Numbered from the stretch's first letter, positions 60,296 through 64,000 are shown. The stretch is DNA of 64,000 nt from Escherichia coli (GCF_048403405.1 NZ_CP183129.1); one strand, 5' to 3'. Numbers: made by a program.

Positions 60296-63200
60296 TCAGC
60301 AACAGCGCACACCAGGTGGCGCTCATGCCGGAACGTCGCCAGCGGAACAGACGGTGATGAAAACCGTAATAATGCATCAGACGACCAGCAAGCAAAACGA
60401 TGCCGCAAATATGCACCATCCAGGTTTCTGCGCCATTCATTTCCATAAACAGCATCAACACAATCGCGATGGGAATATATTCCACCGCGTTACCATGAAT
60501 GCGAATAGCGCTTTGCAGTTCGCTAAAACCGCCGTCGCCATAGGCAACGCGGTACTGCATTCGCAGGCGAACGACATCAAAAGAGAACTTCATTAATAAC
60601 AACGCACTTAAAACGGCATATAGCGCGCTTACCATACAAACTCCCTTTAAAATGGCCGATGGCACCTGTCTATGATAGGTGGCAAATTCAGAAAAGAGAA
60701 GATTGCTGTGGAATAGCCGGAACTGCTCCGATCTCTGGAAGCGTTTTACGTAAGTCTTCCCACAGGGTATGTACCAGTTCCGGGGCCTGGGCAATATCTG
60801 GCGTATGTAAAAAAAGATAAGGCGTAGTGGTCTGATGCCACTGCGCTAATTTTTGTAACCAGACCTGAAATAATTCCCGGTTTTGCGTCATATCATCACT
60901 ACCGATAAAACGGATCAGCGGATTTGTCGCCGTCAGTACAGCATGTACCGGAACTTTAGGTTTTTTTCGTTGAGCGTCGCGAATAGCTTCACTGTGTGGA
61001 CGTGCTGCATGAACCGGGCGGCTGTCTAAAATCACCCGATTAACGCCGCGCTGATGTAAACCGCGATTAAGCGTTTGCTCCTCTTCCCCTTTGGCGAAAA
61101 ACTGTGGATGGCGGACTTCCACACCATAATTAAATTCGCCGGGAAGGGAATCGAGAAAATGCCAAAGCGCAGGCAGATCCCGTGGGCCAAATGTGGCAGG
61201 CAGTTGCAGCCAGTATTGCCCAATGCGCGGCGCTAACGGTGACATGCGGGTCAAAAATTCAGTCACTAAATCATCGCAATGCCGTAATGCTGCCTGATGC
61301 GAAATGGTCGCCGGAAACTTAAAACAGAAGCGGAAGTCATCTGTGGTCTGCTCACGCCAGCGCAGGACAACCTCGGGTTTGGGCAGGGCGTATAGCGTGG
61401 TGTTGCCCTCCACACAGTTAACATGACGGGTATTAAGGATTAACTTACTGATTTTAATAAGCCTCTGGTGTCACTTTGGTGACTATGGGGCATCATTGGG
61501 ACATAATCTGTCAGCTTCTGATTCAGCATTGCGATCTGTTCTGCATTGCTGTCAGTCATCCATGCTCCGTATACATTGAATACCATCTGGGCACTTGCAT
61601 GGCCCATCTGGCTGGCAATGAAGCTTGGGTTTGCTCCGGCAGATAATGACCAGCACGCATAAGTGTGTCGTGACTGGTATGCCTTTCGATGCCTGATCCC
61701 TGCACGCTTAATGGCTGTTTCCCATGAGTCACCTACAGAATCGACTTTGTAGACAAAACCTACCTGTTCGCTTTTTCTAACCACTTGAGGGTTAAACACG
61801 AAAGTACATTCATGGTTCACTGAACGTCCATATTCACGTAGTTGCACCTTGATGTTGTACTGCTTACCCAGTCTTGTCATTTCAGCCTGATTTTTCAGGA
61901 CACTGATAGCGGGCTGGATAAGGTGCACAACCCTGTTTGTGCTTGCTTCAGTTTTCGGTAGAGTGAACTCACCAAGTTTCGTATAATTGCGCCTGATGGT
62001 AATTGTTCCTGCCTTCAGATCGATATCTTCCCAGGCCAGGGAGACCAGTTCACCGTGACGCATTCCTGTGTACACAGCCAATGACCACAGGTTTTTCGTC
62101 TGCTGATGTCGGCAAGCATCTATCAGGCGAATAAATTCGTCACGAGTTAGCGGATCTGGCTCTGCCCTGGCTCTTTTAAGAGGCTTAATTCCCTGGAAGG
62201 GATTTGCTTCTAAGTAACCGTGATCTGCAGCAAACTGAAACATTCCAGCGATTGTCGTCATGTAATAATTTACAGTAACGACGCTCCGTCCTTTTGCTGC
62301 TGCTTTGTTTTTCGTTGAATTCTGATACCCGGTCAGCAAATCTTTCCTGATATACAGCAATTCCTCTTTGGTTACCGATGACACCAGTCTACTGCCTCCA
62401 ATTTTCGGAACCATCGTTCTTGCAACGGATTCATAGCGATTGAATGCATTTGCAGAGATTTCCATTCGTTTCAGATCCAGCCACTTTTCTTCAAGTTCCT
62501 TCACCGTAATTTCTTTTTTACTTACCCCAAAAGCCTGAAGGTTGGGGGAGTCAGGGAACTGTGCAGCATAATCAAAGCTTCCTGTGCGGATGGCAAAACA
62601 TACTGATGTCCGCAGTTCCCCGGCGATCTTCCTGTTCTTGGCAGTGTCAGGGACACCAAGATTTTCCCTGACACGTTTACCTTTAAAATTAAACCAGATG
62701 CGTAATGTGCCGCCGTGGTTTTCGACGCCTGTTGGATATTTGACTTTATCCATCGATACCTCCAGACGCCCAAGAGCGATACGAGCTTACATATTTCATG
62801 ATATTAAATCACCTGGGTTGTTTGTTTTTCATTGAGGCGACCCAGGCATCTATTGCTTTTCTGTTATACATACATTCACTGGAAGGCTTTGGATTACCGT
62901 CTGGTGATACGTGAATATACTCTCTTCCAACCATCCAGCATTCTTTCCGGGCCCGAAGAATTGTGCCTGGTTTGAGCCCGGTAATTGCGATAAGAACGCT
63001 TTCACAAACCCATTCATTGGGAGCCAGTTGAATCACATTGCCCATGTATTACCTCACACAACACTCAGCCCACGGCAGTGGCACCACACTTCAAACATTC
63101 GCTTCACAACTTCACGACAGTAGAAGCCGTCAACATCTCGCGTCAGGTCATAGCGATTGCAGTAACGCTGGTGGACCCATCGTTCAAATGCTTTATTCAT

Positions 63201-64000
63201 TCTTTACTTCCTTTTTATGGCTCGTAATTTTTTCAGGTGCTTTTCCTGCTCAGTGTCCGCGAGAATTTTGCGGTACTCCTGGTGGTCAATATGTTCGAAC
63301 AGGCAGTTTAACTCACCAATGCGTACCCGCCCGGATCGTCCGTCCATCCGTCGAAAGAACACTGAGTGCTCAGTGATGCGAGTAATCACCACGGGGTATC
63401 CAGCTCTGTCCGTGTATATCTGACCGCGTTGAATCAAAGCGAACATGTGGTTATCCCCATCGACAAATCGAGAACACAACAAACGCTGCTGCGAATACCA
63501 CCCCCAGAGTTACGATTGCATCAGGCCAGCTCATTGATTCACCTCCTGCCTGTCGTCCGGCATTCGCTCACTACAGCTTATCCAACCATCCGGAGTTACC
63601 GGAACTTGTGGAATGGCTGTCTGCTCTCGAACGTCATTAGGCGCTATAGGTTCTGCTGCCAACTGACTGGCATATTTGTTAATGGTAACGATAAGCTCTT
63701 GCTCAGCCTCATCCAGACAATCACCGATACCTCGCCTGTCACCGTCAAAATCATCGAAATCGGCACGAATCCTGGCAACCTTCAGGATTGCGGACAACAC
63801 CTCACTAGGAATTGCCGGATAGTTGGTTGACGTTTCCGCGATTTCCCGAAAATTATTGGTTGACGAATTCTTGTTTTCCCGAAAGTTTCCGGACTGAAGC
63901 ATGGCGGCGCGGCAGGCGTTCCATATTTCGGCAGCAATATCGCGCTCGCTATCGGTTAATTTGTACGTTGAAACATAGCCAGAGAGCATTTCTACGTTTT

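Follow-up and report, generated by a model that had tools for sequence, protein, structure and literature searches.

The 64,000-nucleotide stretch of Escherichia coli DNA analysed here (GCF_048403405.1, NZ_CP183129.1; "the window" in what follows) carries at its 3' end the chromosomal genes torZ, cmoB, cmoA, yecN and yecE, in this order, and passes within the yecE reading frame into a run of phage genes headed by that of a tyrosine integrase. From ~13.5 kb, where its alignment with K-12 begins (positions 1-13540 lie outside that comparison), the chromosome is collinear with K-12 as far as yecE, at ~98% identity, and GC content then changes from 0.51 to 0.47 across the junction. Very probably, the window ends in attL and the integrase-proximal arm of a temperate lambda-like phage integrated in yecE. 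The junction itself, the attachment core, the identities of the genes and an empty site in the same lineage are directly established.

The yecE piece at the junction is the promoter-distal part of the gene, left beside attL. Its product covers positions 32-272 of the 272 in NF007637, the YecE equivalog (E 9e-144, profile search), and is collinear with that of K-12 yecE, which is intact and encodes 272 amino acids (aa). A sequence-only reading of the window had described a yecE frame that lost its first ~30 codons to an insertion at the 5' end, where K-12 has an intact gene, and that ran straight into the 3' end of an integrase gene. This description holds throughout: the frame stays open for 19 codons beyond the GTG at 61413, into foreign DNA with no likeness to the N-terminus of YecE, and overlaps the stop codon of the 437-aa integrase open reading frame (ORF), and none of those 19 codons is an ATG, GTG or TTG lying in frame upstream of that GTG. 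A 256-aa "DUF72 domain-containing protein" called here by RefSeq (Prokaryotic Genome Annotation Pipeline) was considered as a functional fusion and rejected. The call starts at an ATT in phage DNA (window 61456-61458, minus strand; position 49260 in locus L001 of strain KE40, a relative described below) and has 19 nt in common with the integrase gene; the product called by other gene finders begins at the GTG and has 241 aa. Because it depends on an ATT start, with no standard start codon upstream of GTG 61413, the 256-aa coding sequence (CDS) is no evidence of a fusion protein, and it looks like an annotation artefact.

The boundary between phage and chromosome is exact, being fixed by comparison with an empty site in the same lineage (locus L018), which is 99.77% identical to the window over positions 46024-61421 and, beyond 61421, keeps an intact yecE where the window switches to phage DNA. 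All 23 contigs read that carry the window's exact TorZ allele also have an intact 272-aa yecE with no insertion; here and below, the protein look-ups (integrase, TorZ allele, and the 241- and 256-aa forms of YecE) covered the ~24 blocks with the longest contigs. The torY gene (54899-55999) is broken by an in-frame stop into ORFs of 60 aa (54899-55081) and 289 aa (55130-55999), as against the 366-aa TorY of K-12; torZ, which lies downstream of it, is intact. L018 has torY split in the same way, and the split therefore marks the lineage.

At the junction lies an 11-bp core, CACACAGTTAA, which matches at 10 of 11 positions the CACGCAGTTAA of both phiP27 attL/attR and K-12 attB. With its flanks, K-12 attB reads CCTC-CACGCAGTTAA-AGTGGCGGGC and the window CCTC-CACACAGTTAA-CATGACGGGTATTAAGG, the phage arm departing from yecE directly after the core; in phiP27, CACGCAGTTAA is annotated as both attL and attR, and is followed by the same CATGACGGGTATTAA as in the window. 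The BLAST alignment with K-12 runs on to 61433 through partial similarity of the adjoining spacer to the displaced yecE sequence. Purely phage DNA begins at 61422, leaving 2,579 bp of the element within the window; the sequence-only reading had drawn its start at 61414, which falls inside the core, and had extended it to 64000. The core also agrees with the att published for yecE and for the secondary site yciD, CAYGCAGTTAA (PMC5592225).

The empty site in L018 (core at 15388-15398) likewise reads CACACAGTTAA, so that the A at core position 4 (window 61414) is a host polymorphism, not a phage feature. The attB core of yecE is polymorphic among E. coli, being CACACAGTTAA in the window lineage and KE40, and CACGCAGTTAA in K-12. 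In KE40, the core on the integrase side carries the A (the host base) and the far core the G (the phage base), a distribution that fits a crossover which probably took place to the right of position 4, within CAGTTAA. An overlap of 7 bp is typical for tyrosine integrases. The attR of KE40, CACGCAGTTAA, lies 40,472 bp from the core on the integrase side, and a 5' fragment of yecE is annotated at the far end of the prophage in strain SW070919. Beyond 64000, the attR expected for the window strain is CACGCAGTTAA joined to AGTGGCGGGCATACTC, which belongs to the 5' part of yecE; in fuller form it would read TTTTTAAAAATCCCGTAT CACGCAGTTAA AGTGGCGGGCATACTCTTCAAGG, after which yecE codons 28 to 1 and yecD would be reached in turn.

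Table 1. Features at the yecE junction, with positions counted from the first nucleotide of the window.
Feature	Position	Strand	Remarks
yecE (DUF72) without its first 31 codons	60688-61413	minus	241 aa; NCBIfam NF007637
attL core CACACAGTTAA	61411-61421	.	11 bp, yecE codons 29-32
P' arm spacer, core to integrase stop codon	61422-61439	.	18 bp; phiP27 spacing equal (attL 1-11, int from base 30)
Tyrosine integrase, phiP27 subtype (by sequence)	61440-62753	minus	437 aa; PF12167 + PF00589
Two TGGGRCAT repeats, candidate P' arm-type integrase-binding sites	61486-61504	plus	11 bp apart, within int 3' end
Excisionase	62809-63045	minus	78 aa; phrog_539, E 5e-40; PF06806 (precomputed)
Early-left ORF, phage family of unknown function	63054-63200	minus	48 aa; phrog_3871, E 2e-33
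DUF4222 protein, phage family of unknown function	63204-63446	minus	80 aa; phrog_285, E 2e-33; PF13973 (precomputed); RefSeq CDS WP_000457723.1
ea-type ORF, cut by window end	63531-64000	minus	C-terminal 156 codons; phrog_14306, E 2e-53

The integrase (Int) is, as judged from its sequence, a lambda-Int-type tyrosine recombinase of the phiP27, yecE-specific subtype. Pfam places an N-terminal arm-type DNA-binding domain (PF12167, Arm-DNA-bind_2) at residues 7-70 (E 2.4e-23) and a catalytic domain (PF00589, Phage_integrase) at residues 202-395 (E 1.2e-17), in keeping with the 437-aa tyrosine integrase proposed from sequence alone, and the catalytic residues R232, R362, H385 and Y395 are present, both by motif and by alignment to XerA. 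Most tyrosine recombinases carry His at the first position of the H-x-x-R motif; in this protein Y359 replaces it (window 61677-61679, Y359-Q-S-R362), as it does in phiP27 Int. The protein is identical to Int of phage PhiR49_2 (100%) and shares 417 of 436 residues with that of phiP27 by BLASTP (95.6% by tblastn), with lower identities to Int of phage CharmingMan (85%) and to Klebsiella phage integrases (~78%). The comparison with integrases of yecE-targeting Shiga toxin (Stx) phages, proposed in the sequence-only reading, gives a divided answer: the protein is of the phiP27 subtype, and is not of the EH297/"intR" subtype found in many Stx1a, Stx2a and Stx2d phages, including records named for yecE, an assignment that was considered and rejected on an identity of 76.4% aa and a different extent of att. 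The exact protein occurs in 11,746 indexed blocks of the assembly collection, and adjoins yecE (DUF72) in all 10 of the contexts shown.

When attP was rebuilt from the right end of the KE40 prophage and the left end of the element in the window, a repeated motif, TGGGRCAY, became apparent. It has only six matches in the whole 64-kb window, of which the two at the 3' end of int (Table 1) are adjacent to one another. The KE40 locus (49.9 kb) holds eight matches, and six of these, all in one orientation, lie no more than 200 bp from the two att cores: the pair on the integrase side (L001 49214-49232), and a cluster of four copies in the same orientation 117-176 bp from the attR core (L001 8963-9022). 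Away from the att arms the motif is no commoner than expected by chance, and TGGGRCA repeats are kept in phiP27 attP. These repeats are plausible candidates for the arm-type sites of the N-terminal domain of Int.

Beyond int, the genes expected from sequence alone, an excisionase-like gene and small early-left ORFs in the same orientation, are indeed found, all on the minus strand beside attL. The counterpart of the 78-aa ORF is annotated as excisionase (xis) in KE40, phiP27 and PhiR49_2, and the 48-aa ORF is kept beside xis in all contexts seen. The DUF4222 frame extends mechanically to 63482 from a TTG. The ea-type ORF encodes 259 aa in KE40, to which its visible part is 100% identical; at that length it would reach ~64310, and it shows a weak match to DUF551 at its extreme C-terminus. 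No PADLOC defence model matched any of the five visible gene products at E <= 0.01, and no NCBIfam model matched the four small proteins. A promoter and terminator scan of 60600-64000 gave sites no more frequent than in shuffled sequence, and an Rfam scan found no match in the element, only chromosomal MicL, C0465 and three tRNAs being matched.

The nature of the remainder is most readily approached through genomes that share this left arm, which is present (as at least 80% of window 61300-64000) in 201 of 5,426 complete E. coli genomes. Over that interval, including the 259-aa variant of the ea-type ORF, strains KE40, ECO_1_S and ECO_2_R are 100% identical to the window and SW070919 is 99.9% identical, as is the left arm of strain 774. 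The full element was read in two of these strains, KE40 and SW070919. In KE40 it occupies the same site, spans 40,472 bp between the two cores, and comprises a LexA/cI-type repressor, cro, Rha, RusA, Q, three tRNAs and a holin-lysozyme-Rz cassette, followed by a P27-family small terminase, HK97-type head genes, a lambda-type tail (J, Lom, side tail fibre) and DinI; on its far side stand a 32-codon 5' fragment of yecE and then yecD. The prophage of SW070919 is of the same type (~40.5 kb). No stx is annotated in the yecE prophage of either strain, and in both the tRNAs are separated from the holin by no more than a partial ORF. A complete lambdoid gene set (immunity, replication, Q, lysis, head and tail) is present in both, and also in the yecE prophage of O104:H4. 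The lambdoid character assigned to the element from the window alone is thus matched by what genomes with an identical or near-identical left arm carry, namely full lambdoid prophages flanked by attR.

These relatives are, at the same time, mosaic. The int-xis-orf48-DUF4222 block is constant in more than 20 contexts from the protein look-ups, and a breakpoint follows sharply at ~63480-63530, after the DUF4222 gene (loci L008-L037). The next ORF encodes 101, 113, 114, 170, 209, 243, 253, 259, 301 or 314 aa, depending on the context, and past that ORF the gene content varies from the RdgC/YfdR type to the N/CIII/Kil/Ral type. Single contexts showed, past the breakpoint, a Band_7 and DUF5406 pair, an ORF6N protein, or a lambda N/CIII/Kil/Ral region. 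The 259-aa variant in the window would favour a phage of the KE40 type; the same variant is found with a different early region in another context (L015). In the 2011 outbreak O104:H4 strain 2011C-3493 (L020; NC_018658.1, 2147000-2196000), the yecE prophage has a left arm 99.0% identical over 92% of the query, with the same int, xis and DUF4222 genes, here combined with lambda-type head genes. In that prophage, the position taken by stx in Stx phages, with the tRNAs on one side and the holin on the other, is occupied by a SASA-family carbohydrate esterase.

Several observations weigh against a prophage of this kind in the window strain. Only the 2,579 bp of the element are within the window, and attR as well as the immunity, replication, lysis and structural genes would lie beyond 64000. 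Since the relatives are mosaic from ~63,500 on, an identical left arm is no guarantee of the same remainder, and the cargo of the prophage in the window strain cannot be inferred from them. A 25-kb megablast against the 5,426 complete genomes gave a best full-coverage match of 98.8%; that is the level at which the chromosomal background of the KE40 group differs over 25 kb, so that its members are not the window strain, and identity beyond 64000 is assumed. Nor did any of the contexts retrieved combine, in one contig, the torY nonsense mutation of the window with an occupied yecE.

The window is compatible with other readings to very different degrees. A Stx-converting phage (for instance one of the Stx2e type resembling phiP27), whose stx genes would sit past 64000, after Q and before the lysis cassette, is suggested by phiP27 itself, which has the same core and a closely similar Int and carries stx2e, and by the status of yecE as a hot spot for Stx1a, Stx2a and Stx2d phages (PMC8112680, PMC5592225); it is nevertheless very improbable, in that similarity to phiP27 extends through int and xis only into the beginning of the ORF that follows, the Stx1a/2a/2d phages at yecE have another integrase subtype, and no stx is annotated in the yecE prophages of KE40 (100%), SW070919 (99.9%) or O104:H4 (99.0%), or in PhiR49_2 (99.8%). 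A decayed remnant, in which the int-xis arm is followed by deletions or insertion sequence (IS) elements and neither excision nor particles would be expected, is an unlikely account of a window that shows the element only up to 64000. Cryptic lambdoid remnants are common in E. coli. Many hot-spot prophages are reported to be defective (PMC8112680). Yet the ORFs in the visible 2.6 kb are all intact, each being 100% identical to its counterpart in complete prophages, and the empty yecE in all 23 of the contigs with the window's TorZ allele suggests a recent acquisition that left little time for decay. Moreover, the near-identical PhiR49_2 was deposited as a complete phage, and similarly named phages form a plaque-tested panel (PMC13190303).

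A non-phage integrative element with a borrowed phiP27-type integrase, whether a phage-inducible chromosomal island (PICI), a satellite or an integrative island, draws what credit it has from the exchange of integrase modules among mobile elements and from the mere 2.6 kb that are visible. It is scarcely credible, as the genes after xis are typical of lambdoid early-left regions (DUF4222, ea22/DUF551-type ORFs), and the genes near the exact integrase in its various contexts are of the cI/cro-type, Rha, Ea22, RdgC or N/CIII/Kil kinds, with no context laid out like a PICI or an integrative and conjugative element. The prophage reading is therefore retained, with the most probable full element being a non-toxigenic, possibly inducible lambda-like siphovirus prophage of some 40-50 kb, most of which would lie beyond base 64000; judged by the integrase subtype and the closest relatives, a non-toxigenic phage is much the most likely. 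It is quite improbable that the unseen part holds consequential or undescribed cargo, for instance an stx operon, or a novel module for defence or of moron type, located in the hypervariable early-left region or between Q and the lysis genes. Were this the case, the window would record a recent conversion event, given that yecE is empty in every relative sampled from this lineage.

Under the prophage reading, the phage would have entered by site-specific recombination between attP and the 11-bp core inside yecE (codons 29-32). In both the P and the P' arm, the N-terminal domain of Int would bind the TGGGRCAY repeats, and strand exchange, within the shared CAGTTAA of the core, would fall to its core-binding and catalytic domains; the reverse reaction would be directed by the excisionase encoded next to int. 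Integration detaches the promoter and first 28 codons of yecE, which is most likely inactivated as a result. Features of this kind are already known and are common in E. coli, and the present one is consistent with the known biology of lambda-type integration; what it marks is the boundary of a prophage at a classic integration hot spot, together with the disruption of yecE. Because yecE prophages can be Stx-converting, a strain in which the gene is occupied deserves a check of the full element. Beyond annotation, the analysis adds the candidate TGGGRCAY arm-type sites, a host polymorphism that would confine the crossover to CAGTTAA, and the mosaic breakpoint after DUF4222, none of which is surprising.

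Elsewhere in the window, ~770 bp with the K-12 genes yecT and yecV are absent between flhE and argS (51195-51235); several other genomes show a length difference of ~860 bp over the 25-kb stretch used for the megablast, which may be the same yecT/yecV indel. The IS1 that MG1655 carries upstream of flhD is absent at ~35262-35269, where two alignment blocks abut. Positions 1-13540 apparently hold the fliZ/fliA/fliC/fliD to yedL side, including a 548-aa ORF at 10940-12586.

As for known systems, the literature documents yecE as an integration hot spot, occupied by Stx1a, Stx2a, Stx2d, Stx2e or non-Stx phages (PMC5592225, PMC8112680, PMC8065619), in line with the sequence-only reading, which had named Stx2-converting and other lambdoid phages; the list of classical integration sites of Stx phages includes it, with phiP27 as the first case (PMC8065619, citing Recktenwald & Schmidt 2002). 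In O145:H28, the gene holds Stx1a, Stx2a, Stx2d or non-Stx phages, with a 21-bp att common to phage and yecE (PMC8112680). The EH297/"intR" integrases of such phages (Stx1a, Stx2a, Stx2d; O26:H11, O145:H28, O80:H2) resemble the present one in family, target gene and the overlapping core CAYGCAGTTAA (PMC5592225, PMC8112680), but differ from it in sequence, as given above, and in the longer att that they have in common with yecE (GTCATGCAGTTAAAGTGGCGG, as against the 11-bp core of the window). The Stx2e phage phiP27 (AJ298298) is nearer in its integration module, with an Int 95.6% identical over 436 aa, the same excisionase, 11-bp core and 18-bp spacing, and the same site in yecE; its DNA similarity to the window is confined to query positions 2-1871 (94.3%), ending ~1.87 kb into the element, just 2.7 of 40.5 kb are in common between it and the KE40 prophage, and its own gene set is that of a contractile tail (a sheath protein is annotated) with stx2e. 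For phage PhiR49_2 (PV340570), the deposited record is a complete phage genome and names ECOR13 as host; similarly named phages (PhiR40.1, PhiR68.2 and others) belong to a plaque-tested panel of lambda-related temperate phages (Brenes & Laub 2025, cited in PMC13190303, where the panel is used). PhiR49_2 has the identical Int, 2,058 bp of the left arm at 99.8% and no annotated stx, and across the late region it matches the KE40 prophage at 95-99% identity; its similarity to the window ends at ~63,470, past which it differs in the ORF following DUF4222 and in its immunity and replication region.

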